In this document: positions 5,760-30,958 of the stretch, in pieces | Position numbering within the stretch: position 1 is the stretch's first letter | How the letters are laid out: each line of letters begins with the position of its first letter | DNA from: an uncultured Acidobacteriota bacterium | Lineage (GTDB): Bacteria > Acidobacteriota > Polarisedimenticolia > Polarisedimenticolales > JAIQFR01 | Assembly: GCA_937864465.1 (NCBI GenBank) | Contig: CALMJU010000044.1 | Span: 935 to 64,934 of the forward strand | DNA: 64,000 nt | Direction: 5' to 3' | Notes under the pieces: model-generated | The model's input: the letters and a program-made list of their open reading frames with translations, nothing else | What the model was told of the DNA's origin: nothing | Database searches by the model: none | Program-made: the position numbers and the translations under genes

Positions 5760-5780
5760 GCGACGGGAGAGGAATCGTCC

Positions 5781-6551: not shown

Positions 6552-6564
6552 GCGGGAGGCGCCG

Positions 6565-9155: not shown

Positions 9156-9607
9156 TGCCGGAACTCCGCGACCTGTACCAGGAGCTCGTCCTCGACCACG
9201 GGAAGCGTCCGAGGAACCGTCGGATTCCCCCCGACGCCAACCGCCGCGCCGACGGCTTCAACCCGCTCTGCGGCGACAGGATCTCGGTCTTCGTCGCGCT
9301 CCGGAACGACGTCGTCGTGGACATCGGATTCCAGGGCTCGGGATGCGCGATCTCGACCGCCTCCGCCTCCCTCATGACGGAGTCGCTCAAGGGAAAGACC
9401 GTCGCCGAGGCGGACGCCCTCTTCGGCAAGTTCCACGCGCTCGTCGCCGGCGGGGAGGGACCGGCCTCGCCGTCTCCCGAGCTCGGAAAGCTCGGCGTCT
9501 TCGCGGGCGTCCGGGAATTCCCGATGCGGGTGAAATGCGCGACGCTCCCCTGGCACACCCTGCGCTCCGCGCTCCACGGGGACGGCCGGGCCGCGCCGTC
9601 GGACTAG
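9155..9607 (+). CDS. sufU: SUF-system NifU/SufU-type Fe-S scaffold / sulfur acceptor
   Basis: LYQELVLDHGKRPRN...NPLCGDRISV...GSGCAISTASASLMTE...VKCATLPW, carrying the three conserved Cys of SufU/IscU. The start overlaps the sufS stop (TGATG). Confidence 0.85.
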   Translation: MPELRDLYQELVLDHGKRPRNRRIPPDANRRADGFNPLCGDRISVFVALRNDVVVDIGFQGSGCAISTASASLMTESLKGKTVAEADALFGKFHALVAGGEGPASPSPELGKLGVFAGVREFPMRVKCATLPWHTLRSALHGDGRAAPSD

Positions 9608-9986: not shown

Positions 9987-10682
9987 ATGGTTGCCCTGTT
10001 CGTCCTGCTCACGATCATCACCCTGCTTTCGATCGACTACTTCGTCCAGAGAGCCCAGTTGAGGAAGGCGAAGGCGCTCGGCGTCGTCCCCGAGAGCGCC
10101 CCGGCCTCTGCCGCCGTGCGGCCGATCACGGCGATCGACGAAGTCCCGGCCGGCGTCTTCCTGGATCCCGGCCACGTGTGGGCGCAGCTCGAGCCCTCCG
10201 GCGCGCTCCGAATCGGCGTCGACCGGATGCCGCTCGCCATCCTCGGCCGGCCCGATCGGATCGAGGTCCGCACCGAGGGAACGACGCTCCGCGCTGGCGA
10301 TCCGCTCGTCACGTTGTTCCGCGGGAATCGAAAGGTCGTGCTCCGATCCCCGGCGGACGGCGTCGTGGCCCGGGTCAACGCGGAGGCGAACCCCGAGCAG
10401 CTCGACCGGGACCCCTACGGGCGCGGCTGGCTCTACTGGCTCTCCCCACGGGACGTCTCCCCCGCCCTGAAGCGGATGCTCGTGGCGGACGAGGCGAAGG
10501 CCTGGGCCCGCGCGCAGCTCGCGCGGCTCAAGGAGTTCCTGGCCACGGGCGGAGCGGAGACCCAGCTGGTCGGCGCCACCGTCCAGGACGGCGGGGCTCT
10601 CGTAGAAGGGCTCTCGGACCATCTCGACGACGAGAAGTGGCAGCGCTTGGTCAACGAGTTCTTTCCGGCGACGGCGCGGTAG
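9987..10682 (+). CDS. membrane-anchored GcvH-like (glycine-cleavage H fold) protein, probably not lipoylated
   Basis: ORF 9927..10682. I prefer the ATG at 9987 because AGGAGG lies 6 nt upstream. N-terminal TM helix MVALFVLLTIITLLSIDYFV. GcvH-like core GHVWAQLEPSGALRIGVD....SPADGVVARVN....DPYGRGWLYWL. Confidence 0.7.
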   Translation: MVALFVLLTIITLLSIDYFVQRAQLRKAKALGVVPESAPASAAVRPITAIDEVPAGVFLDPGHVWAQLEPSGALRIGVDRMPLAILGRPDRIEVRTEGTTLRAGDPLVTLFRGNRKVVLRSPADGVVARVNAEANPEQLDRDPYGRGWLYWLSPRDVSPALKRMLVADEAKAWARAQLARLKEFLATGGAETQLVGATVQDGGALVEGLSDHLDDEKWQRLVNEFFPATAR

Positions 10683-10751
10683 ACTTCCTGCCGACGAGGC
10701 AGGTCGGTCCCGGATGCCGGGCCGGTGAACTCGCGAGCGGAGGCGATTGCC

Positions 10752-11528
10752 ATGAAGGTGGGGATTCTGACGGATCTTACGAAGTGCGTCGGATGCGAGG
10801 CATGCGTCTGGGCCTGCAAGGAAATCAACGAGCTACCCCGAGAGGACGGCGCCGCTAGGCTCTCGGGGACGACCTGGACCGCGATCGAGCGCCACGGGAA
10901 CGTCAACGTGAGGCGGCAGTGCATGCACTGCGAGGAGCCCGCCTGCGCGTCCGTGTGCCCCGTCGCGGCGTTCCAGAAGACCCCCGAGGGGCCGGTCATC
11001 TATCTCCCCGATCGATGCATGGGCTGCCGCTACTGCATGATCGGGTGCCCGTTCGGCATGCCCAAGTACGAATGGGACAAGCCGCTCCCCCTCGTTCGCA
11101 AGTGCATCCTCTGCTACGAGACCCGGGTCAAGAACGGCGGCCAGCCCGCTTGCACGGCGGCCTGCCCGGCGGGCGCCACGATCTTCGGCGAGCGGGACGC
11201 CCTGATCCGGGAGGCCCGCCGCCGGATCGAGGCCGAGCCGGGCCGGTACGTCGATCACGTCTACGGGATCTCGGAAGCCGGCGGTACGTCGGTGCTCTAC
11301 CTCTCCGGAGTGCCGTTCGAGAAGCTGGGCTTCCGCGTAGACGTGCGGGAAGATCCGTACCCGAAGCTCACCTGGGACATTCTCTCGAAGCTCCCGAGCG
11401 TGATCAGCGTGTGGGGCGTGAGCCTGCTCGGGATCTGGTGGATCACTCACCGCCGCGACGACGTCGCCGAGGCGGAATCGCACGGGCACGGTGGAAGTGC
11501 GGCGGGCCCGGACAAGGATCGGCACTGA
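10752..11528 (+). CDS. four-cluster 4Fe-4S ferredoxin subunit (HybA/DmsB/NrfC-like) with a C-terminal TM anchor
   Basis: Four Cys groups: CVGCEACVWAC, CMHCEEPACASVCP, CMGCRYCMIGCP, CILC...CTAACP. C-terminal helix LPSVISVWGVSLLGIWWI. GGAGG lies about 9 nt before the ATG at 10752 (alternative start 10725). No RR twin-arginine motif at either start. Confidence 0.85.
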   Translation: MKVGILTDLTKCVGCEACVWACKEINELPREDGAARLSGTTWTAIERHGNVNVRRQCMHCEEPACASVCPVAAFQKTPEGPVIYLPDRCMGCRYCMIGCPFGMPKYEWDKPLPLVRKCILCYETRVKNGGQPACTAACPAGATIFGERDALIREARRRIEAEPGRYVDHVYGISEAGGTSVLYLSGVPFEKLGFRVDVREDPYPKLTWDILSKLPSVISVWGVSLLGIWWITHRRDDVAEAESHGHGGSAAGPDKDRH

Positions 11529-11529
11529 C

Positions 11530-13167
11530 ATGGGGGCCCGGAACATGACGACGGGGGCGGCGAAGATGGAGCGATGGTTCGGGAAATTCACCTTCTGGAA
11601 GGCCCTGCTGGGCGTGACGATCGCGATCGCGCTCTACGCGGCGTACGTCCGCTTCTTCCACGGGCTCGGCGCGTCCACGAACCTGTCCGACCAGTTCCCG
11701 TGGGGCCTCTGGATCGGATTCGACATGCTGGTCGGCGTGGCGCTCGCGGCGGGCGGCTTCGTCATCGCGGCGACCGTCCACGTCTTCCGGATCGAGAAGT
11801 ACGAGGAGATCGCGCGGCCGACGATCCTCACCGCCTTCCTCGGCTACCTGCTCGTGATCGTCGCGCTCCTGTTCGACCTCGGACGGCCCTGGAACATCTG
11901 GCACCCGATCATCATGTGGAACCCGCACTCCGTGATGTTCGAGGTCGGATGGTGCGTCATGCTCTACACGACGGTGCTGGCCCTCGAGTTCAGCCCTCTC
12001 GTGTTCGAGCGGTTCGGCTGGAAGATGCCGCTCCGCCTCGTCCAGCGGATCTACACGCCGCTGGTCATCGCGGGCGTGCTCCTCTCGACGATGCACCAGT
12101 CGTCGCTCGGCACCCTCTACGTGATCGCCGCGGGCAAGCTCCACCCCCTGTGGTACTCGCCGTGGCTCCCGGTCTACTTCTTCCTGACGGCGATCGCCGG
12201 GGGCCTGGCCATGACGATCTTCGAGTCGTACATGAGCTTCAGGGCCTTCGGGAAGCGCCTGGAGGCGGACCTCCTCCAGAATCTCGGGCGCTGCGCCGTC
12301 GTGGTCCTGGCCGTGTACGCCATGTGGAAGGCCCAGGACCTGCTCTCGCGGGACCAGTTCGCGACCATCTTCCAGGTCACGCCGGAAAGCGTGATGTTCT
12401 GGGGAGAGATCGGGCTCGGCGTCCTCCTCCCCATGGTGCTCTTCGCGACGCCGCGCGTCCGCAGGAACGAGAACGGCCTGTTCTTCGCGGCGACGCTGAC
12501 GATCCTCGGTCTCATCGTCAACCGCCTGAACGTCGCGATCACGGGCATGAGCGCGTCCTCGGGCACCTCCTACTTCCCCTCGTTTCTCGAGATCGTCGTG
12601 ACGGCTTCCATCGTGGGGGCCGGCTTCACGGTGTTCGCGCTCGCGGTGAAGTTCTTCCCGGTCTTCCCGGAGGCCCACGCACCGGCCGCCGCCGCGCTGC
12701 CCGCCGCCCAGAAGCCGGAAGGGGCCGCTGCGGCGCTCGCCCGCTCCCGCCCCGCGTTCGGCAAGGCGGTGCTCGCGGGTCTCTGGGTGCTCCTGATCGT
12801 CGGGTTCGTCGTGGTCGCCGCCACCCGCGGCGAGGGCAGGATCGACACCACGACCGCGGAAGATCTCCTGGATCCGAAGGTCGCGGCCCGCGCCGCCGAC
12901 CTGCGCCTTCCCGAGGACTACACGTTCCCGCAGGCCGAGTCGAGCCCCGGCCCGGTCACGTTCAGCCACGAGACGCACGTGGATGGGTCTCAGCCGCGGT
13001 GCGCGACCTGCCACAACGGCACCTTCCGCCTGCAGGAGGCCGGCACTCCGCTCCGGGGAGGGCTGACCGAGGAAAGGATCCACCGAGGGGATCTCTGCGC
13101 GTCGTGCCACAACGGGAAGGACGCCTTCGGAATCGACGACGACAACTGCTCGACCTGCCACCGGTGA
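11530..13167 (+). CDS. NrfD/PsrC-family integral membrane (quinone-interacting) subunit fused to a C-terminal triheme cytochrome c7-type domain
   Basis: The polytopic part (FWKALLGVTIAIALYAAYVRFFHGLGASTNLSDQFPWGLWIGFDMLVGVALAAGGF...) is NrfD-like. The C-terminal ~90 aa carry three CXXCH motifs: CATCH 13000-13014, CASCH, and CSTCH 13147-13161. Their context, VTFSHETH...CATCHNG.F...CASCHNGKDAF....C.TCH, is typical of c7 triheme domains. The start is ambiguous (ATG at 11530, 11545 or 11566). Confidence 0.85.
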   Translation: MGARNMTTGAAKMERWFGKFTFWKALLGVTIAIALYAAYVRFFHGLGASTNLSDQFPWGLWIGFDMLVGVALAAGGFVIAATVHVFRIEKYEEIARPTILTAFLGYLLVIVALLFDLGRPWNIWHPIIMWNPHSVMFEVGWCVMLYTTVLALEFSPLVFERFGWKMPLRLVQRIYTPLVIAGVLLSTMHQSSLGTLYVIAAGKLHPLWYSPWLPVYFFLTAIAGGLAMTIFESYMSFRAFGKRLEADLLQNLGRCAVVVLAVYAMWKAQDLLSRDQFATIFQVTPESVMFWGEIGLGVLLPMVLFATPRVRRNENGLFFAATLTILGLIVNRLNVAITGMSASSGTSYFPSFLEIVVTASIVGAGFTVFALAVKFFPVFPEAHAPAAAALPAAQKPEGAAAALARSRPAFGKAVLAGLWVLLIVGFVVVAATRGEGRIDTTTAEDLLDPKVAARAADLRLPEDYTFPQAESSPGPVTFSHETHVDGSQPRCATCHNGTFRLQEAGTPLRGGLTEERIHRGDLCASCHNGKDAFGIDDDNCSTCHR

Positions 13168-13195
13168 CGGTGGGATGTCTCGGGGAGGGAACGCC

Positions 13196-13948
13196 ATGCA
13201 TTCGCGCGACAGGAACGGCCCCCCGAGAAACCTGATCCCGGACGACTCCTATCCGTGCGTCTGGATGACCGCCGGGCAGGTGGCCTACAAGCTCTGCGAC
13301 CGGGATTTCCGCTGCGAGGACTGCCCTCTCGACGCCGCGCTCCGGGGCCAGGCGCTCCCGCGCCCGGCGGAGCCGATCCCCGCCCTGCCCGAGGCTCCCA
13401 CCCGGGAGTTCCCGGAGGACCGGCTGTACGGCCCGGGACACACGTGGGCCGGAGTGCTCGACGACGGGCACGTCCGCGTCGGGCTCGACGGGTTCGCCGC
13501 CGGGCTGCTCCAGCACGCCTCCGGCGTCATCCTCCCGGCCCCGGGCAGCGCCTTGGAGCAGGGGCGCGCGGCGTTCTGGGTCACCGACGGGACCTTCACG
13601 GTGGCGCTCCGGAGCCCGGTGGCGGGGATCGTCGTGCGCCGGAACCACCGCCTTCGCGACCACCCGGCCCTGGCGGCGGAATCGCCCTACTCCGAAGGCT
13701 GGCTCGTGGAGCTGGAGTGCGACGACGTCGGGAGCGCGGTGTCGCGCCTGGAGGGAGCCGTCGCGGCGCAGGAGCGCGCGGGCGCCGACCACGCGAGGCT
13801 CCGCGACGCCGCCCTCGAGGAAGCGCGAAAGGACTCGGGCGCAGCCGTCGGGCCCACGCTCCAGGACGGGGGCGAGCCCTCCCAGGACCTCCGGACCGTC
13901 CTGCAGCCGGCGCGCTACTACGGCCTCGTGAGCCGCATCCTCGGCTGA
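13196..13948 (+). CDS. GcvH-like protein with an N-terminal Cys-rich motif, lacking the lipoyl lysine
   Basis: ORF 13175..13948. ATG 13196 is preceded by GGGGAGGG. N-terminal C-X12-C-X5-C-X2-C motif (YPCVWMTAGQVAYKLCDRDFRCEDCP, 13256-13324). GcvH-like core GHTWAGVLDDGHVRVGLDGF...RSPVAGIVVRRN...SPYSEGWLVELE. Confidence 0.7.
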   Translation: MHSRDRNGPPRNLIPDDSYPCVWMTAGQVAYKLCDRDFRCEDCPLDAALRGQALPRPAEPIPALPEAPTREFPEDRLYGPGHTWAGVLDDGHVRVGLDGFAAGLLQHASGVILPAPGSALEQGRAAFWVTDGTFTVALRSPVAGIVVRRNHRLRDHPALAAESPYSEGWLVELECDDVGSAVSRLEGAVAAQERAGADHARLRDAALEEARKDSGAAVGPTLQDGGEPSQDLRTVLQPARYYGLVSRILG

Positions 13949-17696: not shown

Positions 17697-17845
17697 GCGC
17701 CGGCCGGCGGCGTCCCCCGGCCCCCCCTTGGCCCTGAAATCCGGTCTTCCGCCGGAACCTTCCCGGGGGAGTGGCCGTTCTCTACGGCGAGGGGAACAGG
17801 TCGCCGGGCCGGCGACAGGCCGCGCGGGCGGCGGAAGGAGATGCC

Positions 17846-18421
17846 ATGAAGCGATGGATGATCCTGGCGGGGATGGGAATGGCCCTCGCGGCCGGAGCGG
17901 CGGCGACGGTCCGCGCGGCCGAGGCCCAGCCGTGGCTGCACGTTTACGTGACCGAGTCCGGCGAGCGGGGCGAGACCGTGCGCGTCAACGTGCCGATCGA
18001 GCTCGTCGAAAAGGTACTGCCTCTCGTCCGCCACGAGCGCTTTCGCGAGGGCAAGGTCCGGATCGAGATGGGAGACTCCGACTTCTCCGCGGCGGATCTC
18101 CGCGCGGTCTGGCAGGCCGTGCGCGCCTCGCGGGACGCGGAGTACGTGACGGTCGAGGGACCCGACGAGAAGGTGCGGGTCGCGAAGCGGGGCGACGAGA
18201 TCCTGGTGCTCGTCGACGGCTCCGCCGAGAAGGCGGAGAAGGTCGAGGCGAGGATTCCGCTCGACGTCCTCGACGCGCTGTTCTCCGGCTCGGAGGAGGA
18301 GCTCGACGTCCAGGCCGCCCTGCAGGTTCTCGCACGGAAGGGGTCCGGCGACATCGTCACGGTCCAGGACGGCGACACTCGGGTGCGCGTGTGGATCGAC
18401 TCGAGCGAAGAAGGGCGGTGA
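17846..18421 (+). CDS. secreted hypothetical protein
   Basis: ORF 17771..18421, trimmed to ATG 17846 (GGAAGGAG 5 nt upstream). Signal peptide MKRWMILAGMGMALAAGAAATVRA. Acidic and E/V-rich, with internal repeats of an E.VRV..P.. motif. Confidence 0.6.
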   Translation: MKRWMILAGMGMALAAGAAATVRAAEAQPWLHVYVTESGERGETVRVNVPIELVEKVLPLVRHERFREGKVRIEMGDSDFSAADLRAVWQAVRASRDAEYVTVEGPDEKVRVAKRGDEILVLVDGSAEKAEKVEARIPLDVLDALFSGSEEELDVQAALQVLARKGSGDIVTVQDGDTRVRVWIDSSEEGR

Positions 18422-18443
18422 CTCGCACCGACGGGAGGACGCC

Positions 18444-18887
18444 GTGAGACTCTTCAGCAGGATCCTGGCGATCGTGGGCGCGCTGGTCCTCGTCACGGCC
18501 GTCTCGCTCGCGGCAGTCGTCTCCTACTACTGGATCCACGACGGCACGATCGAGGTCCGGGTCCGGCCCAAGCAGGCGGGGGGGGATGACGTTTCGATCC
18601 GATGCCCCGCGTTCCTCGCCCGGGCCGGCCTGGCCCTCGTCCCTGCGTCCCGGCTCCGGCTCGGAGAGGAAGCCCGCTCCGCGCTCTCCGCCGCCGGGGA
18701 GATGGTTTCCCAGCTCCGGCGATGCCCGGACGCGACCTTCGTGGAGGTCCTCTCGCGCGAGGAGAGCGTCCGGGTCTCGAAGCGGGATGGCCGGCTCGTC
18801 ATCGAGGCCGACACCCCCGGCGAGACGGTCTCCTTGGCGGTCCCCTTGGCCACGGCGGAAGTCGCGCTCCGCGCGATCCGGGATTGA
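18444..18887 (+). CDS. membrane-anchored hypothetical protein, distant paralogue of the preceding gene
   Basis: GTG start with GGGAGGA upstream. N-terminal TM ILAIVGALVLVTAVSLAAVV. The segment FVEVLSREESVRVSKRDGRLVIEAD...VSLAVPLATAEVAL resembles VTVEGPDEKVRVAKRGDEILVLVD...VEARIPLDVLDAL of the upstream protein. Confidence 0.55.
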   Translation: MRLFSRILAIVGALVLVTAVSLAAVVSYYWIHDGTIEVRVRPKQAGGDDVSIRCPAFLARAGLALVPASRLRLGEEARSALSAAGEMVSQLRRCPDATFVEVLSREESVRVSKRDGRLVIEADTPGETVSLAVPLATAEVALRAIRD

Positions 18888-18918: not shown

Positions 18919-20052
18919 TCAGAGAGCGGGGGCCGGCCCCGCGGCGGAGGCTGGGCGAGGAAGCGAGGGGGGAAGCACCCGCACGAAGACCGTCGCCCGC
19001 TCCGATCCGAGGATCACCGTCACTCGTCCTTGCCGCGGGGAGGCGCCGGCCTCCCCTTCCGTCCAGGTGATCTCGAGACGGAAGCTCCTCGGTCCGAGCG
19101 GAGACGTCCGAACCGAGAAGGGAGTGGGCTCGGCGGTCACCCGCAGGGCGGTCGGGTCCAGGTCCCAGCGAACCGTGAGGATCGTGGAGCCCGAAGCCGG
19201 CTGCCCCGGTTGAGGAGCGTCGAGAACGATGCTCGGCGCCGAGACCGCCAGCGCGGGCATCGTGCGCACGCTCACCCAAACGGCCGCCTCGGGCTCTCGC
19301 GCGAGGCCGGTCTTGAACCGGACCCCGACCGAGGAGGGGGACGGCGGCGCGTCGCCGACGAGCCTCGCCTCGATGAGCCAGTCCCCGGGCTCCGCGGGAG
19401 GAAGTCCGGGTTCGACCGCCCCGGCCTCCCCGATCTTTCGCGCCGTGGCCGAGAGCCACGGCACGGTCGAGGCGATCTCCGAGATCTCCAGCGTCCCCGT
19501 CTCGGACTCGTCCTTCCGAACCAGGGTCCGGACGACGTTCTCGTCGCTCCGGCCGACGGAAAGGACCAGGTTGCGTCCGGGATAGAAGTTGACGCTCGCC
19601 ACCACGGTCGCCCGCAGCGTCAGCGTCACGGACGGGTGGGCCGGATCGTTCGTCCGGACGGCGATCGTCTTGCTGATGGGGCCGGAGTATCCGTCGGTAC
19701 GGATCGAAGCCGTCACCTTCCCTGCCTGCCCGGGCAGGATGGCCTCGTCGAACGAGGCCACCGCGCACCCTCAGCCGGGCTTCGCGGACAGGATCCGGAG
19801 CACGTCCGAGCCGAGGTTCCGGAGCGTGAAGCTCCCCTCGGCGGGAGTCCCCCGCGTCACCGCTCCGAGATCGATCGCGTCCCGCTCGACCTCGAGCCGG
19901 GGGCCGGTCGCCGGGGAGGTCTCCGCGGGCGCGGGCGGCGGCTGGGTCGGGGAAGGAGCCGGCGCCACGGACTCGCTCGCGGGAGCCCCGCCGGCGAGCG
20001 CCGCGACGAGCAAGCTCGCCACGAGGGCCATCGCTCCGATCGGCAACCGCAT
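18919..20052 (-). CDS. secreted DUF1573-domain protein containing an in-frame TGA (19771-19773): candidate selenocysteine codon, or else a pseudogene
   Basis: ORFs 19771..20094 and 18919..19761 share one frame and are separated only by the TGA. Joined, they read: signal peptide MRLPIGAMALVASLLVAALAGG, P-rich linker, then IDLGAVTRGTPAEGSFTLRNLGSDVLRILSAKPG-*-GCAVASFDEAILPGQAGKVTASIRTDGYSGPISKTIAVRTND. This is the DUF1573 pattern with the stop at the first Cys of C-G-C. GGAGA lies 6 nt before the ATG at 20052. Confidence 0.55.
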
Positions 20053-20138
20053 GCTCATTCTCCGGGAAGCGCTCCGGAAATCGCGGGGAAGCATACCGCG
20101 GCCGGGCGGCCGGCGCGAGGACGCTCCGCCGGGCCCTC

Positions 20139-20206: not shown

Positions 20207-20806
20207 TTACGGGGCCACTCGGACGCTGTCGGTCACGATCGTCGGCGTGAAGGCCACGCCGGCGGTGGCGAGCCGGAACGACGGCTCGACGGGGAAATCG
20301 AGGACGACGACCTGGGGCTGTCCGGTAAGGCACCGGAACCCCACCGGATGCTCGACGCCGACACCCGGGCTGGGAAGCGGCACGTCGCGGGACACGCCGT
20401 TCGCGTCGACGACGCGCGCGGCCGAGATGTCCACGCGCAACGCGTCGTACGAGCCGGCGGGAACCTCGGCCTCGGCCAAAACGAGAGTGCGGCCCCGGAC
20501 GAGAGTGAGGAGGTCCACCGTCACCTCGCCGGGCCCTTCGATCGCGATCCAGCCGCCGCCCGCGACGCGGGCCGACACGCCGGTGAAGGTCACCCACGCC
20601 TCGCGAATCGAGGGAGCGGGCGCATCGTGGACGGCCACGGTGAGGTTCACGGCCTCCGGCTGGGTGGCCGGAGCCACCGCGACCGGCGCGGGCGGAATGC
20701 CGATCTCGCTTCCGGGGACGAACGTGGAGCTGTCGGAACAGGCGGTGCCCGAGATCAGGATCAGGCCGAGCGTGAGGAGTCCTGCGGTCTCGCGAAGATG
20801 GTGCAT
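20207..20806 (-). CDS. DUF4382-like lipoprotein
   Basis: ORF 20207..20857, trimmed to ATG 20806 (G-rich RBS upstream). Signal plus Cys: MHHLRETAGLLTLGLILISGTAC. The body ...AWVTFTGVSARVAGGGWIAIEG.GEVTVDLLTL..G.T..LAEAEVPAGSYDALRVDIS resembles DUF4382. Confidence 0.65.
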   Translation of the reverse strand: MHHLRETAGLLTLGLILISGTACSDSSTFVPGSEIGIPPAPVAVAPATQPEAVNLTVAVHDAPAPSIREAWVTFTGVSARVAGGGWIAIEGPGEVTVDLLTLVRGRTLVLAEAEVPAGSYDALRVDISAARVVDANGVSRDVPLPSPGVGVEHPVGFRCLTGQPQVVVLDFPVEPSFRLATAGVAFTPTIVTDSVRVAP

Positions 20807-21095
20807 CGTGCTTCCCCCCTGAGATGCTTGTCTCGCCGGGAACGGTCCGGCTCGCACGATCCGGGGAGCAACGAGCGTGCCTCGGCCGGCCCGCTCCCCT
20901 CTCGGCCCGGCCCCGGGTCCGGATTCCCCCTCGATTCGGCCCGATTCCCGAGATCGGCCGCCGTTCCTTCCGGCGTCGCGTGCGCCCCGCGACGGTTACG
21001 GTTCCGGAGCGCGCCGTTACGCTTCCGGAATCGAGGCGGCCGGCGCCGCGATATAGTCCCGGTGCGCGCCGCCACGGCCGCCGACGGAGGTGACC

Positions 21096-22166
21096 ATGCC
21101 GCTCGACCTGCTCAAGGACTACCAGATTCCGGGGACGTCGCCCGGTACGCTGACCGCCGCGGAGGGCGAGAGCGGGCCGGCGCGGATCTTCCTCACGAGC
21201 TACACGCCGGGGCGGCTCGAGACGCGCGAGGTCGCCGACGCGGAGGCGCTCCGCGGCCTCGCCGCCGGGGAGGGGGTTCACTGGGTCCAGGTGATCGGAC
21301 TCGGGGACGTCTCGACGATCGGCCGGATCGGCGACGTCTTCGGCCTTCATCCCCTCGCGCTCGAGGACGTCGTTCACCTCGGGCAGCGGCCGAAGGTGGA
21401 GGATTACGAAAACGTCGTCTTCGCCACCTGCCAGATCCTCGAGGCGGAAACCGGGTCGGTCGGGAAGTTCCAGGTCTCGCTGTTCCTGGGACCGGGTTTC
21501 GTGGTCACCTTCCAGGAGTCGGGCGAGGACCGTCTCGCCCCGATCCGGTCGAGACTCGAGGTCCCGCAGGGAAGGCTTCGCAACCGCGGCCCAGGATACC
21601 TCGCCTACGCGATCCTCGACCGCGTCGTCGACTCCGCCTTCCCCGCGCTCGAGTCCATCGGAGAGCGTCTCGAGGATCTGGACGACCGCATCCTGGAGAG
21701 GCCGGACCGCGAGTCGATGGAGCGCCTGCAAGAGATCCGGAAGGACCTCCTGCGGCTCCGGCAGGTCCTCTGGCCCCAGCGCGAGGTGCTGGCGAGGCTC
21801 GCACGCGACGAGCACGACCTTCTCGGCAACGACACGCGGCTCTACCTCCGCGACTGCCACGACCACGCGGTGCAGGCGCTCGAGGTCTCGGAGAACTATC
21901 GCGAGATGGCCTCGGGGTTGCTCGACATCTACCTGTCGAGCCTGAGCAACCGGCTCGGCGACGTGATGCGCGTGCTGACGATCATCTCGACCGTGTTCAT
22001 CCCCCTCGGCTTCCTGGCCGGCGTGTACGGCATGAACTTCGACACCGGCGGCGGCTGGAACATGCCGGAGCTCGGATGGAAGTACGGCTACCTGGCGTTC
22101 TGGGCCTGCTGCATCGCGGCGGCCTCGGGAATGCTGTACCTGTTCCGGCGGAAGGGCTGGCTCTGA
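21096..22166 (+). CDS. corA: CorA-family Mg2+/Co2+ transporter
   Basis: C-terminal TM pair with the YGMNF signature (LAGVYGMNFDTGGGWNMPEL). GGAGG lies 5 nt before ATG 21096 (the ORF-track start GTG 21090 is less likely). Confidence 0.9.
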   Translation: MPLDLLKDYQIPGTSPGTLTAAEGESGPARIFLTSYTPGRLETREVADAEALRGLAAGEGVHWVQVIGLGDVSTIGRIGDVFGLHPLALEDVVHLGQRPKVEDYENVVFATCQILEAETGSVGKFQVSLFLGPGFVVTFQESGEDRLAPIRSRLEVPQGRLRNRGPGYLAYAILDRVVDSAFPALESIGERLEDLDDRILERPDRESMERLQEIRKDLLRLRQVLWPQREVLARLARDEHDLLGNDTRLYLRDCHDHAVQALEVSENYREMASGLLDIYLSSLSNRLGDVMRVLTIISTVFIPLGFLAGVYGMNFDTGGGWNMPELGWKYGYLAFWACCIAAASGMLYLFRRKGWL

Positions 22167-22190: not shown

Positions 22191-23456
22191 TCAGATCCCC
22201 GGACCGGCCGGGAGGAAGCTCGTCACGATCATCAGGGCCGTGAGCGCGACGAGCACGCAGGTCGTGACCCAGACGACCGTGTTGTAGGCCGGTCCGTTCA
22301 CGAACGTTCCCATGATCGCCCGGTCGTTGACGAGGCGCACCATGAAGACGAGCACGACGGGGAGCAGGACGCCGTTCAGGATCTGCGAGACGAGGATGAT
22401 CTTCAGGAGCGGCAGCCCCGGCAGGAGAACCGCGCCGGCGCTGATCGCTACGATGGCGGTGTAGAGGCTGTAGAACTCCGGCGCCTCGCTGAACTTCCGG
22501 TTGACGCCGGCCTCGAGCCCCAGCCCCTCGCAGACGCTGTAGGCGGTCGCGAGGGGGAGGATCGAGGCGGCGAAGAGGCAGGCGTTCGCGAGGCCGAAGG
22601 CGAAGAGCGTCTCCGCGTACCTGCCCGCCAGGGGAGCGAGGGCACGGGCCGCCTCCGCGGCAGACCCGATCGCGAGGACGCCGGCCTCGTGGAGGGTCGC
22701 CGCGCAGGCGACGATGATGAAAAACGCCACGACGACCGCCATGACGGAGCCGAGAACGACGTCGAGCCTCGACTTCGCGTAGTCGGCGATCCGGACCTCC
22801 TTCTCGACGACCGAGGACTGGAGGTAGAACTGCATCCACGGGGCGATCGTCGTCCCCACGATGCCGACCATCATCGCGATCCCGGCGAGATCGAACGGGA
22901 CCGTCGGGACCACCGCCCCGTGGGCGGCCGCCCCCCAGTCCGGCTTGGCCAGGAACCCCGAGATCGGATAGGCGAGATAGAACAGGCAGGCGATCAGGAA
23001 CGCCTTCTCGACCGTCTTGTAGGTGCCGAACACGACGAGCCACCACACGAACACGGCCCCCAGCGGAACCGACACGTAGCGGCTGACGCCGTACAGCTCG
23101 AGCGCGGAGGCGAGGCCCGCGAACTCCGCGACGGCGTTCCCGAGATTCGTGAAGAGCACCGCCATCATGAGGAGGAACGTGACGCGGAGGCCGAACTCCT
23201 CGCGGATCAGGTCCGCCAGCCCCTTGCCGGTGACGGTCCCCATCCGGGAGCACATCTCCTGGACGACGATCAGGGCGAGCAGCACCGGCACCAGGATCCA
23301 GAGCAGGCGGTACCCGTACTGCGCTCCGCACAGGGAGTACGTGTAGATCCCGCCCGCGTCGTTGTCCACGTTGCTCGTGATGACGCCGGGCCCCATGAAG
23401 GCGACGAGGAGGGCGATCCGCCCGCCGACTCCCCGCAGCTTCGCCAAGAGCGCCAC
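22191..23456 (-). CDS. Nramp-family transporter with non-canonical metal-site motifs (Nramp-related Mg2+ transporter-like)
   Basis: Nramp fold signature GPGVITSNVDNDAGGIYTYS...QEMCSRMGTVTGKGLADLIRE... TM1 has D-A-G-G (23349-23360) instead of DPGN. TM6 has GTTIAPWMQ (22830-22856) instead of GA.VMPHN. The GTG start lies 3 nt after the upstream stop. Confidence 0.85.
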   Translation of the reverse strand: MALLAKLRGVGGRIALLVAFMGPGVITSNVDNDAGGIYTYSLCGAQYGYRLLWILVPVLLALIVVQEMCSRMGTVTGKGLADLIREEFGLRVTFLLMMAVLFTNLGNAVAEFAGLASALELYGVSRYVSVPLGAVFVWWLVVFGTYKTVEKAFLIACLFYLAYPISGFLAKPDWGAAAHGAVVPTVPFDLAGIAMMVGIVGTTIAPWMQFYLQSSVVEKEVRIADYAKSRLDVVLGSVMAVVVAFFIIVACAATLHEAGVLAIGSAAEAARALAPLAGRYAETLFAFGLANACLFAASILPLATAYSVCEGLGLEAGVNRKFSEAPEFYSLYTAIVAISAGAVLLPGLPLLKIILVSQILNGVLLPVVLVFMVRLVNDRAIMGTFVNGPAYNTVVWVTTCVLVALTALMIVTSFLPAGPGI

Positions 23457-23459: not shown

Positions 23460-24686
23460 TCACTCCCCCGTCACGACCCGGCTGAAGACGTCCTCGATGT
23501 TGATCAGGCCGACGAGACGCCCGAACTCGTCCGTGACCGCGAGGGCCCGGAGGTGGTACTTCTCGAAGCGCTCGACGACCTCGGCGAACGGCGTGGCGGG
23601 GGTCACCGCCCTCGCCTCCCGGCGCATGTACTCGGTCACCCGGCCGCTCTCGGGGGCCCGGACGAGCCGGACCAGGGGCACGACGCCGACGAGGCTCTCG
23701 TCCGCCTCGACGACCGGCACCTCGTCGAGCTCGCCGAGGAGGTCCGAATCCACCTCCCGCAGGGAAGCGAGGGCCTGCCCGACGGTCCAGTCGGCGCGGG
23801 CGAAGAAGAAATCCGTCGTCATCAGACCGCCCGCGGAGTCGTCACGGAACTGGAGCAGCTCCCGCACCTCCTCCGCCTCTTCCTCCTCCATGGCCGCGAG
23901 CACCGCCTTCGACCGCTCCTCCGGCAGGTCTCCCAGGATGTCCGCTGCCTCGTCCGGCTGCATCTCCTCGAGGAGGTCGGCGGCGCGCTCCACGTGGATC
24001 GCCTCGACCACGGCCGCCTGAACGCTGGGCTCGGCCTCGGAGAGCGCCTGCGCCGCCGTTTCGGGGTCGAGCGCGGAGAGGATCTCGCGCCGCTCGACCC
24101 GCCCGAGGTCTTCGAGGATGTCGGCCAGATCCGCGGGGTGCATCTTGGCGAGCTGCTGGTGCACCTTGAGCCGGATGCGGGAGCCCGCCTCGACGAGGCC
24201 GACGTAGTCCCAGGGGATCGACTGCGCCGTCAGCCCGTCGGCGATCCGCCTCACAATCCCCGGGCGGACGATCCCCGCGAGGAGGCGCCGGACCGCTCCC
24301 GCGAGACCGACCTCCACGCGCCGCAGGGCGAGATGCCCCCCCGCCGGCTCGAGGAGGATGTCGTTGACCTTGACCACCTTGCGGCCCCGGATATCGATGA
24401 TCTGCCGGTCGAGCACGTCCCGCTTGAGGTGGAGCGTCTCTCCTCCCGGCTCCGCCCCCGGCCCCCTCCCGAGCCCGGCCTTCTCCGCGAGCACGACGCG
24501 CCGGGTCTCCGGCGAGAACGTCTCGACCGATTCCCAGGCGACCGAGGAGCGCTCGCGGCCGGAGCGGACCACGATCCTCGCGACGAGCCCCCGCGACGAG
24601 TCGACGAGGAGATCGTCGAGGCGGCCGATCTTCGTCCCCGTCTCGTCGAAGACGGGCAGGTTCAGCGCTTCCGAGAGATGCGGCAT
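23460..24686 (-). CDS. soluble PRC-barrel + MgtE N-terminal domain + tandem CBS protein (no membrane domain)
   Basis: Inner ATG at 24686 within ORF 23460..25958 (GGAGG 8 nt upstream). PRC-like N-terminus (LNLPVFDETGTKIGRLDDLLVD). MgtE_N-like acidic helices (HPADLADILEDLGRVERREILSALDPETAAQALSEAEP...AADLLEEMQPDEAADILGDLPEERSKAVLAAME). CBS pair (...VPVVEADESLVGVVPLVRLV...ALAVTDEFGRLVGLINIEDV). Confidence 0.8.
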   Translation of the reverse strand: MPHLSEALNLPVFDETGTKIGRLDDLLVDSSRGLVARIVVRSGRERSSVAWESVETFSPETRRVVLAEKAGLGRGPGAEPGGETLHLKRDVLDRQIIDIRGRKVVKVNDILLEPAGGHLALRRVEVGLAGAVRRLLAGIVRPGIVRRIADGLTAQSIPWDYVGLVEAGSRIRLKVHQQLAKMHPADLADILEDLGRVERREILSALDPETAAQALSEAEPSVQAAVVEAIHVERAADLLEEMQPDEAADILGDLPEERSKAVLAAMEEEEAEEVRELLQFRDDSAGGLMTTDFFFARADWTVGQALASLREVDSDLLGELDEVPVVEADESLVGVVPLVRLVRAPESGRVTEYMRREARAVTPATPFAEVVERFEKYHLRALAVTDEFGRLVGLINIEDVFSRVVTGE

Positions 24687-24894
24687 CGGATCCGCCTCCG
24701 TACCGGGGTCCGCCGGCGCGACGCCCGCGGCGCGAGACGCCAAGCGGCGCGGGCCGATCCGACCTCGGTCCGCCCCATTATCCGACCCAGCCCGCCCTCC
24801 GGGAAGCCCGTGACGCCCAGGGTCGTGCATAATCCGGGGGAAAGAGGCACGCCCGGGGCGGCGAGCAGGCCGCGCCGGGAGCGGGAGAGGCCCG

Positions 24895-26331
24895 ATGGAC
24901 GCGAGACCGTTCTTCGTGGGAGGGCGCGAGACGCCCCGCCGTCCGGGCCTCGGCGTCGCGAGCCCGTTCGACGGCGGGAGGGTCGCCGAGGTCGGCCGGG
25001 CGAGCCCCGGCGACGTCGAGGCCGCACTCCAAGCCGCGGAGCGCGGGTTCCGGGCGATCCGCGGCACGCCCGCGTGGAAGCGCGCCGAGATCCTCTCCGC
25101 GGTGGCTTCCCGCCTCGCGGCCGAGAGGGAGCGCTTCGCGAGGACCATCGCCCTCGAGGCGGGGAAGCCGATCGCGCAGGCGCGCGCGGAGACCGAGCGC
25201 GCGGCCCTGACGTTCCGCACGGCGGCGGAGGAGGCGCTCCGGATCGGGGGGGAGGTTCTCCCTCTCGACGTGCTTCCCGGACACGAGGGGCGCTTCGCGC
25301 TGACCAGGAGGTTCCCGGTCGGGCCGGTCGCCTGCATCACCCCGTTCAATTTCCCGCTGAACCTGGTCGCCCACAAGGTCGCCCCCGCGATCGCGGCGGG
25401 CTGCTCCTTCGTCCTGAAGCCGGCCTCGAAGACTCCCCTCTCCGCGCTCGACCTGGCGAAGGTCCTCCTGGACGCCGGCACGCCGCCGGAGGCCGTCTCG
25501 GTCCTCCCGCTCGCGGGGGCCGAGGCCTCCCCTCTCGTCGAGGACCCAAGGATCCGGGCGGTTTCCTTCACGGGATCGCCCCAGGTCGGATGGGAGGTGC
25601 GGCGCCTCGCGCACAGGAAGAGGGTCGTCCTGGAGCTCGGAGGGAACGCCGGACTCGTGGTCGACCGCGGGGCCGACCTCGACGCGGCCTCGGCCCGCGC
25701 CGCGGCGGGCGCGTTCTGGCAGGCCGGCCAGAGCTGCATCTCCGTGCAGCGGATCTTCGCCCACGAGGCGGTCTTCGAGCCGTTCCTGGAGAAGCTCCTC
25801 TCCCACGTCGACGCCCTTGTCGTCGGGGACCCCCTCGACGAGCGGACGACCGTCGGGCCGGTGGTCGCCGAGGAGGACGCCGCCCGCATCGAGTCGTGGA
25901 TCGACGAGGCCCGCTCGGGCGGCGCACAGGTGCTGCGCGGAGGGAGTCGGCGCGGCACCCTCGTCGAGCCGACCGTGCTGACCGGGACCCGGGAGACGAT
26001 GCGAGTCCGGGCCCTCGAGGTGTTCGGGCCCGTCGTGGCCGTCGAGCCGGTCCGGTCGGCCCTCGAGGGAATCGAGGCGGTCGACCGCTCCGACTACGGC
26101 CTCCAGGCGGGCATCTTCACGAGCGACCTGGCCGTGGCGATCGCCGCTTTCGAGAGGATCGAGGCCGGCGCGGTCGTCGTCAACGACGTCCCCACCTATC
26201 GGGTGGACACGATGCCCTACGGCGGCGTGAAGGCCTCGGGCTCGGGACGCGAAGGGCCGCGCTGGGCGATCGAGGACTACACCGAGATGCGAACGCTCGT
26301 CGTGAACGCGGGAACGACCGCCCGGACGTAG
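24895..26331 (+). CDS. NAD(P)+-dependent aldehyde dehydrogenase family protein
   Basis: FTGSPQVGWEV, VVLELGGNAG (catalytic Glu), GQSCISVQR (catalytic Cys), and the C-terminal PYGGVKASGSGREG motif. Confidence 0.9.
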   Translation: MDARPFFVGGRETPRRPGLGVASPFDGGRVAEVGRASPGDVEAALQAAERGFRAIRGTPAWKRAEILSAVASRLAAERERFARTIALEAGKPIAQARAETERAALTFRTAAEEALRIGGEVLPLDVLPGHEGRFALTRRFPVGPVACITPFNFPLNLVAHKVAPAIAAGCSFVLKPASKTPLSALDLAKVLLDAGTPPEAVSVLPLAGAEASPLVEDPRIRAVSFTGSPQVGWEVRRLAHRKRVVLELGGNAGLVVDRGADLDAASARAAAGAFWQAGQSCISVQRIFAHEAVFEPFLEKLLSHVDALVVGDPLDERTTVGPVVAEEDAARIESWIDEARSGGAQVLRGGSRRGTLVEPTVLTGTRETMRVRALEVFGPVVAVEPVRSALEGIEAVDRSDYGLQAGIFTSDLAVAIAAFERIEAGAVVVNDVPTYRVDTMPYGGVKASGSGREGPRWAIEDYTEMRTLVVNAGTTART

Positions 26332-26399: not shown

Positions 26400-28640
26400 T
26401 CACTTCGCCGCGCCGAGCCCCTCCAGCATCTCGCGCGCGGCGGGCACGAGCTTCGGATCGGCGCCTGGCTGGGCGAGGAACTCCCGGAGCGCCTCGGCGG
26501 CTCCCGCCCGATCCCCGGAGGCGAGCCGCACTTCCGCCAGCCGGACTCGCGCGGACGGATGGTCCGGCTGCCCTGCCACCAGCCGTTCGAGGCTCCCCAC
26601 GGCGGCCTCGCGGTCTCCGAGCTTCGCGCACATGGACGCATGATCGAGAAGGGCAGCCGCGTCGCCGGGGGCGACGGCGAGGGCCCGATCGAGGGCCTGC
26701 CGGGCCTCCGCGAGCTTCCCCTCCCGAGCCCGGAGCCACCCGAGCTGCTTCCAGGCCTCCGCCAGGATCCTCGGATCCGCTCCGGCCGCCCTCGCCAGGT
26801 CGCGCTCCGCCCCCGCCGCGTCCCCCCCCGCGATCCGGGCCAGGCCGAGGGCCGCCCACGCGGGGGGCTCGTCGTACCCGAGACGGATCGCCTCGGCGTA
26901 TTCCCGGATCGCCGCCTGCGGATCGCGGAGGGCGTACAGCGCCTTGCCGAGACCGTAATGGGCGTCCGCCGCGGACGGACGGATGGCGATCGCGGCCCTG
27001 TAGGCCCGGGCCGACTCCTCGAGACGGCCGGCGTTGCGGAGCTGGGCCGCGGCGTTCCTCTGGATCTCGTAGACCCCCGGCGCCGCTTGGGCCGCCGCCT
27101 GCAGACGCCGCAGCCCCCCCGGCACGTCCCCCTCCTCGACCAGGAGCGCGCCGAGACTCGACAGCGCCAGCGGATTGCGCGGGTCCTCCGCCAGCAGCCT
27201 CTCCAGCTTCTCCCGGGCCTCGTCGTTGCGGCCGCGCGCGACGAGGGACCGCGCCTCGAAGAACAGATCGTGCAGAGCGACCCGGCGCTTCGAATCCGGC
27301 AGCGGGCCGTCCCCCGTCGCGGGCGGCGCCCCGCCGGCCACGTAGCCTAGGCTCTCGAGCATCCTGCGACGCTCGTCGCTCACCGGCTGCCGGGCGGAGG
27401 GGTCGGCCTCCCCCATCCCGGCGAGGAGCGCGGCGAGCTTCTCCCGGAAGGCCGCGACGTCGCCGGCTCGCGCGGAGGCGAGGTTCCGCGTCTCGCCGGG
27501 GTCGGCCCGGAGGTCGTAGATCTCCGGCTCGGGCGCATCGACGAACTCGAGGCTCCCCTCGCGGAGCGAGCGCAGGGCCGCCCAGCCGTACGACCGCTCC
27601 CCGTACAGCGATTCGGAGTAGGCCGGCGCCGGAGCGGGGGCGCTCCGGGAGCCCGTGAGCGCCGCGGCGAAGCTCCTCCCCTGCGCTCTCCGCATCGGAG
27701 GCATGCCGAGCAGATCGAGGATCGTCGGAGCCAGATCGACCTGCGAAACGGGCTCCCGCCAGCGAACGGGAGCCCGGACCCGGTCGGGAAATCGGAGGAT
27801 CAGAGGCACCCGGATCGTCGCGTCGTACACGAGGAGGCCGTGCGTCCTCTCGCCGTGATCGCCGAGCGCCTCCCCGTGGTCTCCCACGGCGACGACCAGG
27901 GTCTCGCGCAAACGGCCCCGTCCGGCCATCCCGTCGAGCAGCCGTCCGATCTCCGCGTCCATGAACGCGATCTCCCCGTCGTAGGGCCGCCCGGCGAAAC
28001 GGTGCGACCAGGGCGGGGGCGGCCGGTACTCGACGTGCGGATCGAAGTAGTGAACCCACAGGAAGAACGGCCCGGATGGAGCTCGATCGAGCGCCGCCAG
28101 CGCCGCGTCGGTCACCTCGGAGGCGGTGCGCTCCGCCTCCGCCGCGTAGAGCACCCCGGCCGCGGCCCGGGCCGCCGAGGCCGGGGCGGCGCGCGGCTCG
28201 TCGTAGGTCCGGAATCCCTGGGCGAGCCCCTGCGACGACGAGAGCACGGCCGAGCCCACGACGGCGATCGTCGCGTAGCCCCGGCTCCCCAGATGCTCGG
28301 CCAGGGTCGTTTCCCGGTCGGGGAGGCGGAAATCGCCGTTGTCTCGGACCCCGTGTCTCGGCGGATAGAGCCCGGTCAGGATCGACGCGTGGGCCGGGAG
28401 CGTCAGCGGGGCCACGGCGGCCGCGGCCTCGAGAACGGCTCCTTCGGAGGCCAGCCGGTCGAGCCGCGGCGTTTCCCCCCGATCGTACCCGTAGCATCCC
28501 AGCCGGTCCGCTCTCGTCGTGTCGAGCGTGATGAGGAGAAGGCTCGGGGAACGCCCGGCGGCCGGAGCTCCCGCGGACCGGCCTCCCGCCGTCCCGGCCA
28601 GCACCGCGATCGCGAGCGCGGCGGCCGAGCGTCGGATCAC
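26400..28640 (-). CDS. alkaline-phosphatase-superfamily 'sulfatase-like' domain fused to C-terminal TPR repeats
   Basis: Inner GTG at 28640 (GTGA overlap with the upstream stop) within ORF 26400..30233. Signal-like N-terminus, then LLLITLDTTRADRLGCYGY...APLTLPAHASILTGLYPPRHGVRDN...GDHGE...THG. The C-terminal half consists of TPR units (A..Y..A....P....A...LG). Confidence 0.8.
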   Translation of the reverse strand: MIRRSAAALAIAVLAGTAGGRSAGAPAAGRSPSLLLITLDTTRADRLGCYGYDRGETPRLDRLASEGAVLEAAAAVAPLTLPAHASILTGLYPPRHGVRDNGDFRLPDRETTLAEHLGSRGYATIAVVGSAVLSSSQGLAQGFRTYDEPRAAPASAARAAAGVLYAAEAERTASEVTDAALAALDRAPSGPFFLWVHYFDPHVEYRPPPPWSHRFAGRPYDGEIAFMDAEIGRLLDGMAGRGRLRETLVVAVGDHGEALGDHGERTHGLLVYDATIRVPLILRFPDRVRAPVRWREPVSQVDLAPTILDLLGMPPMRRAQGRSFAAALTGSRSAPAPAPAYSESLYGERSYGWAALRSLREGSLEFVDAPEPEIYDLRADPGETRNLASARAGDVAAFREKLAALLAGMGEADPSARQPVSDERRRMLESLGYVAGGAPPATGDGPLPDSKRRVALHDLFFEARSLVARGRNDEAREKLERLLAEDPRNPLALSSLGALLVEEGDVPGGLRRLQAAAQAAPGVYEIQRNAAAQLRNAGRLEESARAYRAAIAIRPSAADAHYGLGKALYALRDPQAAIREYAEAIRLGYDEPPAWAALGLARIAGGDAAGAERDLARAAGADPRILAEAWKQLGWLRAREGKLAEARQALDRALAVAPGDAAALLDHASMCAKLGDREAAVGSLERLVAGQPDHPSARVRLAEVRLASGDRAGAAEALREFLAQPGADPKLVPAAREMLEGLGAAK

Positions 28641-30898: not shown

Positions 30899-30958
30899 GG
30901 CCCCCAGGATAGGGCGAAAGCAGCCGCCCGGCCAACATCGCCGGCCTATACTTTCGGG

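Follow-up and report, generated by a model that had tools for sequence, protein, structure and literature searches.

A DUF1573 gene of Acidobacteriota with an in-frame UGA codon, very probably read as selenocysteine, and a conserved pair of abutting hairpins behind it

The locus and its reading frame

The stretch of DNA analysed here (the window) comprises 64,000 nucleotides (nt) of the 66.8-kb contig CALMJU010000044.1 from an uncultured Acidobacteriota bacterium. This report concerns one gene on its minus strand, which carries an in-frame TGA codon inside a DUF1573 domain and which was singled out as a selenoprotein candidate in an earlier note on this DNA (the original prediction). Two open reading frames (ORFs) of the minus strand, 19771..20094 and 18919..19761, share one frame, and the sole stop between them is the TGA at 19771-19773. 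Across the junction the minus strand reads CTG TCC GCG AAG CCC GGC TGA GGG TGC GCG GTG GCC TCG TTC GAC GAG GCC; sequence and translation agree with the original prediction on this mRNA reading, on the shared frame and on the single interruption. Both half-ORFs were scored as coding in the shared frame by a codon log-odds gene caller trained on the clear genes of the window. Judging from the evidence set out below, we hold with high confidence that 18919-20052 of the minus strand is a single gene for an exported selenoprotein of 377 residues and that UGA 19771-19773 is its selenocysteine (Sec) codon. The features of the gene are the following.

18919..20052, minus strand: full selenoprotein coding sequence as we read it, 377 codons including Sec, plus the stop TGA 18919-18921
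20060..20063, minus strand: Shine-Dalgarno-like GGAG, 7 nt upstream of ATG 20052, read from the sequence and putative in its role
19987..20052, minus strand: predicted Sec-type signal peptide MRLPIGAMALVASLLVAALAGG, from sequence, with no lipobox Cys
19603..19893, minus strand: DUF1573 immunoglobulin (Ig)-like domain, straddling the TGA (Pfam PF07610, PF22544; NCBIfam NF041425)
19771..19773, minus strand: UGA taken as the Sec codon, U94 (numbered from MRL), TGA in orthologues and Cys in Cys homologues
19765..19767, minus strand: TGC, C96, second residue of the putative redox pair, between the UGA and the GTG used as a start by gene callers
19739..19761, minus strand: hairpin 1, a 10-bp stem GUGGCCUCGU / ACGAGGCCAU with loop UCG (or 9 bp with loop UUCGA)
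19721..19738, minus strand: hairpin 2, a 6-bp stem CCYGCC / GGCRGG with loop C-G-G-(G/U)-N-A, directly abutting hairpin 1
18922..19602, minus strand: C-terminal region, predicted to form two further Ig-like beta-sandwich domains (AlphaFold model of the Cys-form orthologue P0013, Foldseek)

The start is most likely ATG 20052-20050 (MRLPIG...), as suggested by the GGAG 7 nt upstream and by the signal-peptide-like N-terminus; the other in-frame candidates are ATG 20058 and ATG 20094. Counted from ATG 20052, the gene has 377 codons including Sec, the same length as the full-length product of about 377 amino acids (aa) that had been foreseen. The joined product runs ...SAKPG-U-GCAVASFDEAILPGQAGK across the UGA, with G-U-G-C as residues 93-96, and U94 and C96 are the only Sec and Cys residues of the whole protein. 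It would consist of a Sec-type signal peptide, a Pro/Ala-rich linker, the DUF1573 Ig-like domain and then two more Ig-like domains, and it would be exported, judging from the predicted signal peptide. Cys homologues likewise begin with hydrophobic leaders in an alignment of full-length homologues.

A complete DUF1573 domain across the UGA

For profile searches of the joined protein the stop position was replaced by C (U -> C). The protein matched PF07610 (DUF1573) over profile positions 2-98 of 98, at 63.6 bits (cut-off 26.1; E 1.8e-17), and PF22544 (HYDIN/VesB-like Ig) at E 8.8e-11. As the domain match is complete across the stop, the TGA sits inside one domain. The proposal that the joined product is a signal peptide, a linker and a complete DUF1573 module thus holds in that PF07610 is matched end to end. 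Nine full-length Cys homologues were aligned, including P0017 (Thermoanaerobaculia) and P0021 (Planctomycetota, annotated as DUF1573 domain-containing), and in 9/9 the TGA column is the first Cys of a C-[G/S/N]-C motif, of which the second Cys is invariant. The original prediction had given a C-G-C motif for this family and had placed the TGA on its first Cys, which gives U-G-C; the nine homologues agree with it.

Conservation of the TGA among orthologues

Twenty-four relatives came up when the joined protein was used as a query. Thirteen of them, of 259-408 aa, start with M/VASFDE, that is, at the first start-like codon past the TGA, and nearly all of these have no Pfam assignment. This suggests the same TGA interruption throughout the truncated relatives. 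Three loci were fetched for them, and a further 75 came from a scan with an eight-sequence alignment (16 genome contigs and 59 metagenome contigs). All 16 matches in the genome collection are metagenome-assembled genomes (MAGs) of Acidobacteriota (Terriglobia, Candidatus Polarisedimenticolaceae or unclassified), and the metagenome orthologues come from soil or sediment. The genome matches point to an acidobacterial source for the window too. Carriers of the gene include the assemblies GCA_964590285.1 and GCA_036706575.1 and the Terriglobia contigs CAVVHE010000004.1 (2.2 Mb, with the orthologue of L009), CAWGOF010000002.1 (1.0 Mb) and CAVOVZ010000013.1. The closest orthologue in the genome collection is 74-78% identical, and the Sec-type set spans 34-78% amino-acid identity.

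The aligned codon is TGA in 67/67 distinct Sec-type orthologue sequences, and it is a Cys codon in two Cys-form orthologues, L021 (TGC) and L062 (TGT). An alignment of homologues from related genomes had been proposed as a check on the original prediction; it gives TGA and Cys in this column as just described, with a hairpin behind the TGA that covaries (see below). One of the two patterns used to search for loci sits in the Sec-linked peptide, and the other, C-terminal, pattern is independent of the Sec region. Loci carrying the independent pattern divide into 17 with TGA vs 2 with Cys; the clade is predominantly Sec rather than Cys in this unbiased subset (17 to 2), which is unusual.

Selection on the protein is visible on both sides of the TGA. 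Third positions vary at conserved residues of both flanks (P-2 CCC/CCT/CCG; K-3 AAA/AAG; G+1 GGC/GGG/GGT/GGA; C+2 TGC/TGT), and the C96 codon encodes Cys in 67/67, as TGC or TGT. The upstream half varies freely as a protein, e.g., SFTLRNLGSDVLRILSAKPG vs TFTYHNTGDAPLHILSAHPG, yet it stays in frame and keeps the conserved residues of the domain.

A single sequence would not tell a Sec codon from a nonsense mutation, and public gene callers do split the locus into two ORFs. A pseudogene or an assembly error, i.e., a recent TGC-to-TGA mutation or a base-call error in a Cys-type DUF1573 gene, was raised in the original prediction as the alternative. We regard this as negligibly probable: TGA occurs at the same codon in 67/67 sequences, which were assembled independently from many samples, belong to many lineages and are as little as about 35% identical, there is purifying selection on both sides of it and a conserved structured element downstream, and the sequence divergence of the contigs rules out one contaminated template. 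Both forms of that alternative are ruled out by this recurrence.

The gene caller of the collection annotates each orthologue as two genes, and in the window a GTG stands 9 nt after the stop, which would fit two real genes, one for a small secreted protein of 93-107 aa that stops at the TGA and one for a protein of 280 aa with GTG 19761 as its start. Among the orthologues examined (L001-L005), the public calls split every one into an ORF of 83-93 aa and a domain-less 'hypothetical protein' of 279-408 aa, and the halves of 83-93 aa have at best a 'faint' Pfam match to DUF1573 or a HYDIN-like Ig domain. This arrangement would cut the DUF1573 domain mid-fold. The 9 nt from TGA to GTG encode G-C-x, and because the Cys is present in 67/67 with synonymous TGC/TGT variation, these codons are translated in frame. 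The supposed GTG start reads GTC or GTT, which are no start codons, in 20/67 sequences. Moreover, the downstream half has no signal peptide, and the Cys homologues are single exported chains. Two separate genes are therefore extremely unlikely, the statement that neither half-ORF is credible alone stands (the domain is split mid-fold, the gap from TGA to GTG is coding and the downstream half lacks a signal peptide), and the two-ORF calls amount to an error of annotation that recurs systematically in the clade.

Most genes of the window end in TGA as their ordinary stop (32/43 gene calls), and a global reassignment of TGA was excluded on this ground. No second selenoprotein candidate was found in the window, in which the other TGA-interrupted frames are gene boundaries or shadow ORFs of DNA with 71% G+C.

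A conserved element of two abutting hairpins

Hairpin 1, GUGGCCUCG(U)-UCG-(A)CGAGGCCAU, begins 9 nt past the UGA and has its loop 18/19 to 23 nt past it, and hairpin 2, CCUGCC-CGGGCA-GGCAGG in the window, follows directly. Both are part of the minimum free energy (MFE) fold, whose energy is -28.2 kcal/mol over the 57 nt between the start of the UGA and the end of hairpin 2. Taken as a single sequence, this fold is modestly above chance in 71% G+C DNA (z = -2.1 to -2.2), and 3-7/200 shuffles were equally good.

Pairing was tested in a gap-free alignment of 62 distinct 72-nt orthologue sequences. In the two-hairpin structure 98.5% of cells are paired (98.7% in hairpin 1 and 98.1% in hairpin 2) vs 25-58% when the partners are slid, and 0/500 column shuffles came up to the real alignment in pairing, in covariation score or in how many double changes they had. 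The strongest covariation signal is a compensatory swap of G-C to C-G at pair 18:36 of hairpin 1, which joins two synonymous third positions (GC 42, CG 17, UG 1, mismatches 2), and pair 19:35 of the same stem is GU in 38 and GC in 24. Hairpin 2 covaries at pairs 42:53 (GC 35, GU 21, AU 4, UA 1, UG 1) and 41:54 (CG 52, UA 2, UG 2). The RNAalifold consensus independently gives both hairpins. Synonymous sites are frozen within hairpin 1 (GCC 67/67, TCG 66/67, GAC 64/67, GAG 64/67, ATC 65/67), and conserved residues outside it vary 42-46% at third positions.

The Cys forms L021 and L062 are without both hairpins and do not fold (z = +1.96 and +1.19; Sec form, -2.16). Structure and TGA thus go together, which is what a selenocysteine insertion sequence (SECIS) would show. 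The hairpin that the original prediction had drawn just 3' of the UGA is recovered by the MFE fold, by RNAalifold and by covariation in the 62 sequences, and the second conserved hairpin (19721-19738) had been overlooked.

It is also conceivable that the UGA and the hairpins form a selenium-responsive or structure-dependent switch of regulated termination, which would make a functional truncated fragment besides the full-length protein. Sec recoding in Escherichia coli competes with RF2 and is reported to be only partly efficient (PMC4513850), so some truncated product is to be expected. The fragment would be a signal peptide with half a beta-sandwich, unlikely to fold, and the data give no reason to assign it a function of its own; we consider such a switch highly improbable and read the element as serving the synthesis of the full-length selenoprotein.

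Predicted fold and putative function of the product

The structure was modelled on the full-length Cys-form orthologue P0013 as a proxy (AlphaFold, 19-sequence alignment). The model has three all-beta domains with a mean pLDDT (predicted local distance difference test) of 88.2, and it places C-G-C in a short loop between two strands of the first domain. The C-terminal residues of the window protein (about 225) have no Pfam match even at E <= 1, and a search of the PDB by sequence with the domain gave nothing real, its best match (E 0.5) being a ribosomal protein. Among PDB structures, Foldseek retrieved generic tandem Ig/ASH scaffolds and nothing else, namely HYDIN-type ciliary proteins, cadherins and titin, and it gave no lead to a function.

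U94 and C96 would form a reversible selenylsulfide or bind a soft metal ion in the periplasm or at the cell surface, and the Ig-like scaffold would position the pair rather than catalyse. With low confidence, we propose from the motif, the predicted location and the predicted fold that the protein may carry a periplasmic selenol/thiol redox or metal site.

In one orthologue, P0005 (408 aa; L005 3422-4648), the middle Ig-like domain is duplicated, and the segment WL.VTAR...GIP.AQPGDWILEAK...F.TGLT occurs twice. Therefore the number of C-terminal domains varies within the clade.

Probable recoding of the UGA and fit to bacterial SECIS models

The UGA at 19771-19773 would be read as selenocysteine by the standard bacterial mechanism, in which a downstream mRNA structure would bring SelB-GTP-Sec-tRNA(Sec) to the ribosome at the moment when the UGA reaches the A site, in competition with RF2. 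The recruiting element would be the two abutting hairpins, 19739-19761 and 19721-19738. Unlike the conservation of the UGA and of the hairpins, which is directly observed, the dependence on SelB and the choice of the hairpin that contacts it are what we infer.

The consensus for bacterial SECIS elements (the bSECISearch model) has a loop of 3-9 nt, an upper stem of 4-16 bp and an MFE <= -7.5 kcal/mol, and it calls for a G at the first or second loop position, or at both, and for 16-37 nt from the UGA to the apical loop (PMC13188914, Fig. 2 legend); a subset of predicted bacterial SECIS elements falls outside this model (PMC13188914). Both hairpins are within the limits of size, hairpin 1 with a 3- or 5-nt loop on a 10- or 9-bp stem and hairpin 2 with a 6-nt loop on a 6-bp stem, and their combined energy of -28.2 kcal/mol is within the limit of energy. 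The loop of hairpin 1 lies 18-19 nt from the UGA, which is in range, and has no G in its first two positions. The G-G loop of hairpin 2 fits the G[G|U] pattern and lies 38 nt from the UGA, one nt outside 16-37. The SECIS-like position and geometry claimed in the original prediction thus hold for hairpin 1 in its spacing (18-19 nt), size and energy, and fail for it on the published rule for a G in the loop. Two versions of a tandem element may be considered. The proximal 10-bp hairpin may be a spacer or stacking platform, from which the distal hairpin would offer its G-G-(G/U) loop to SelB, 38 nt away; or the SelB of these Acidobacteria may recognise the non-consensus proximal loop.

Several results weigh against this interpretation of the UGA, of its element and of its product. 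Neither hairpin alone has all four features of the published SECIS consensus. No Rfam family, SECIS or other, was matched in the window at the gathering score or in 19600-19900 at E <= 10, so the covariance-model check over the junction, suggested with the original prediction, gave no Rfam SECIS match even at the permissive threshold. No Sec machinery was seen among the Pfam-annotated genes of the window (42 of 44 gene calls); ARAGORN found no tRNA genes, and hence no tRNA-Sec, in the window or in 34 related loci; and tblastn with SelA, SelB and SelD of E. coli gave 0 matches in 476 kb (the window and the related loci), a small share of each genome. A literature search returned nothing on the function of DUF1573 and no experimental data for any DUF1573 selenoprotein, and, the fold search having returned only scaffolds, a redox or metal role is argued from the U-x-C motif by itself. 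Because only a small part of each genome is covered, the absence of selA, selB, selD and tRNA-Sec from the 476 kb is uninformative rather than negative. Acidobacteria are documented users of selenoproteins, with three families and four proteins in a 2006 survey.

As the Sec machinery of the source genome was not seen in the 64-kb window, a decoding of the UGA as something other than Sec has to be weighed, either as Cys by a selC*-type tRNA(Cys) with SelB and the same hairpin, or as another residue by an opal-suppressor allo-tRNA. The selC* tRNA(Cys) mimics tRNA-Sec, and tRNAs of Acidobacteria with 8/4 and 9/3 structures may be nonsense suppressors (PMC5389517). Reported selC* come from Firmicutes, Thermodesulfobacteria, Nitrospirae and Proteobacteria, and not from Acidobacteria (PMC5389517), while a general suppressor would have no need for a conserved local mRNA structure and would harm the 32/43 genes of the window that end in TGA. 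It would be odd to keep a TGA merely to insert Cys, for which TGC suffices (cf. L021 and L062), and DUF1573 is already catalogued as a selenoprotein family. Non-Sec decoding is in our judgement quite unlikely, and we retain Sec as the residue at U94.

Genomic neighbourhood

The genes on either side of the selenoprotein gene are the following.

17771-18421 and 18444-18887, plus strand: two paralogous unannotated genes of 216 aa and 147 aa with N-terminal hydrophobic segments, convergent with the selenoprotein gene
20207..20806, minus strand: DUF4382 gene (Pfam PF14321, E 2.3e-16), directly upstream after a gap of 149 nt
21090-22166, plus strand: CorA, in the divalent-cation transport cluster beside the selenoprotein gene
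22191-23456, minus strand: Nramp, in the same cluster
23460-25571, minus strand: 703-aa MgtE-like protein with PRC-barrel, MgtE_N and CBS domains, in the same cluster

The most conserved neighbours are the two genes at 17771-18887, which are paralogues of each other (31% identity, E 4e-7) and belong to no Pfam or NCBIfam family. The pair lies downstream on the opposite strand in 32/32 loci with at least 2.8 kb of flank. The DUF4382 gene is possibly co-transcribed with the selenoprotein gene; it is upstream in only 6 loci and so is not an obligate partner. A divergent CorA gene is upstream in 20/42 loci and Nramp in 13. These neighbours hint at a link to divalent-metal handling and prove nothing. 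In a Terriglobia MAG (L003 8136-9278, on a 2.2-Mb contig) a transposase of the IS110 family separates the selenoprotein gene from Nramp, a place that in the window is taken by DUF4382 and CorA.

Up to the selenoprotein gene, the window runs in the order Rrf2-SufBCDS-NifU; GCV_H/4Fe-4S/NrfD-cytochrome c7/GCV_H; a HisKA kinase and a sigma-54 response regulator; a peptidase M54; and the paralogue pair. After it come DUF4382; CorA, Nramp and the MgtE-like gene; sulfatase-TPR fusions and housekeeping genes; a 2505-aa ORF; and RuvABC, YebC and ribosomal RNA (rRNA) genes. At 3787-9607 on the plus strand, the Rrf2-family regulator is followed by a complete Suf operon, with SufB, SufC (ABC ATPase), SufD, a SufS-type class-V aminotransferase and a NifU_N scaffold. 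The next cluster (9987-13948, plus strand) has a gene for a GCV_H-like protein at either end and, between these, genes for a 4Fe-4S dicluster protein (Fer4_11) and for an NrfD-like membrane protein with a fused cytochrome c7 domain, and the same four genes are found at L003 15876-19876 and L005 9550-13730. GCV_H-like (lipoyl-type) proteins around an NrfCD-like quinone module are an unusual combination.

Farther off, two tandem genes at 26400-31558 on the minus strand code for proteins of 746 and 973 aa, in each of which a sulfatase domain is joined to a long stretch of TPR repeats. The ORF of about 2505 aa at 49443-56960 (plus strand) has a very strong coding signal, and the only family that it matches, weakly at 24 bits, is a subtilase-like mycosin model; it probably encodes a large protein that is secreted or sits at the surface. 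At 314-3745 (minus strand), an ORF of about 1143 aa has coding-like composition and no Pfam or NCBIfam match at the thresholds used. At 61664-64000 (minus strand) lie a 5S rRNA gene (61664-61780) and the 3' 2.1 kb of a 23S rRNA gene running off the end of the window.

Annotation and significance

This gene and at least 67 distinct orthologues in Acidobacteriota MAGs and in soil or sediment metagenomes are now called as two unrelated ORFs, a fragment of 83-93 aa and a 'hypothetical protein' of 260-410 aa that has no domain. NF041425 misses the clade by 15-30 bits, and a lower cut-off or a clade-specific model would fix this systematic error. Annotation mended in this way would raise estimates of selenium use in a dominant soil phylum. 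A protein whose sole redox-active residues are one Sec and one Cys on a predicted exposed loop of an Ig-like domain would be a clean system for a periplasmic U-x-C centre, and the two-hairpin element, with its clear covariation, is a test case for how far SECIS recognition departs from the E. coli/bSECISearch consensus. The interest of the locus lies in a putative tandem-hairpin SECIS, in the misannotation within a major soil phylum and in an invariably linked, unannotated gene pair.

Putting these together, we offer one joint proposal as tentative, and hold it to be possible rather than probable: that the clade has a distinct class of SECIS, an obligate tandem of two abutting hairpins, and that with it goes an overlooked, widespread exported selenoprotein of soil Acidobacteriota, tied to the conserved unannotated gene pair and to divalent-metal transporters.

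Comparison with known systems

The locus was first taken for a candidate new selenoprotein, on the view that DUF1573 was not an established selenoprotein family. As a claim of a new family, this is not supported. Two reviews (PMC9312934, 2022; PMC13188914, 2026) have an entry 'DUF1573 domain-containing protein, PF07610, motif UGC' in their tables of selenoprotein families, and both cite Zhang and Gladyshev 2007 (PMC1976440) and its family OS_HP2, so that the catalogued family traces back to 2007, and the NCBIfam model NF041425 exists for it. OS_HP2 comprises two selenoproteins, from the Olavius delta-1 and delta-4 symbionts, in Table 2 of PMC1976440; that it is the DUF1573 selenoprotein we infer from the NCBIfam match and from the order of the review tables. 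The best NCBIfam match of our protein is indeed NF041425, 'OS_HP2 family (seleno)protein', over profile positions 7-97 of 98 at 72.4 bits. Eight other members of the clade score 70.6-84.7 bits, below the curated cut-off of 100 bits, and the Cys homologue P0018 passes at 105.4 bits. Judging from these scores, the clade is outside the curated NF041425 subfamily, as a neighbouring, mostly Sec-bearing acidobacterial clade of the known family. It adds no new selenoprotein family and no new recoding mechanism.

Like the exported thiol/selenol oxidoreductases of the DsbA-like and thioredoxin-like kinds, which the tables of these reviews also contain, the protein has predicted export and a Sec and a Cys a few residues apart, which suggests selenylsulfide chemistry. 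Unlike them, it has an Ig-like beta-sandwich in place of the thioredoxin fold and U-x-C in place of U-x-x-C, and for DUF1573 proteins no catalytic function is known from the literature search.

As in the consensus SECIS, with E. coli fdhF as the prototype, a stable stem-loop lies inside the coding region right after the UGA. The element differs from the consensus bacterial SECIS in having two conserved hairpins in tandem and not one, with a proximal loop, (U)UCG(A), that has no early G and a distal loop, CGG(G/U)NA, that has the G, but at 38 nt.

Cys-type DUF1573 proteins (e.g., P0013, P0017 from Thermoanaerobaculia, P0018, and P0021 from Planctomycetota) share with the Sec form the signal peptide, the DUF1573 domain, the C-terminal Ig-like domains and the position of the motif, whereas they have Cys (TGC/TGT) for Sec and no hairpin after the codon. 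The peptide after the motif is FDK/FDR/YDP in the Cys types and the hairpin-encoded SFDE(A/V)I in the Sec form.

The nearest relatives are the OS_HP2/DUF1573 selenoproteins, which have the same Pfam domain, Sec in place of the first Cys of C-G-C (U-G-C) and a stem-loop after the UGA. The comparison with the published examples CAB1076174.1 and MDJ0815992.1 is one by description. The founding members of OS_HP2 belong to marine deltaproteobacterial symbionts of worms, whereas the clade described here belongs to Acidobacteriota of soil and sediment, and in it the DUF1573 domain is followed by about 225 residues that are predicted to form two extra Ig-like domains without family assignment.

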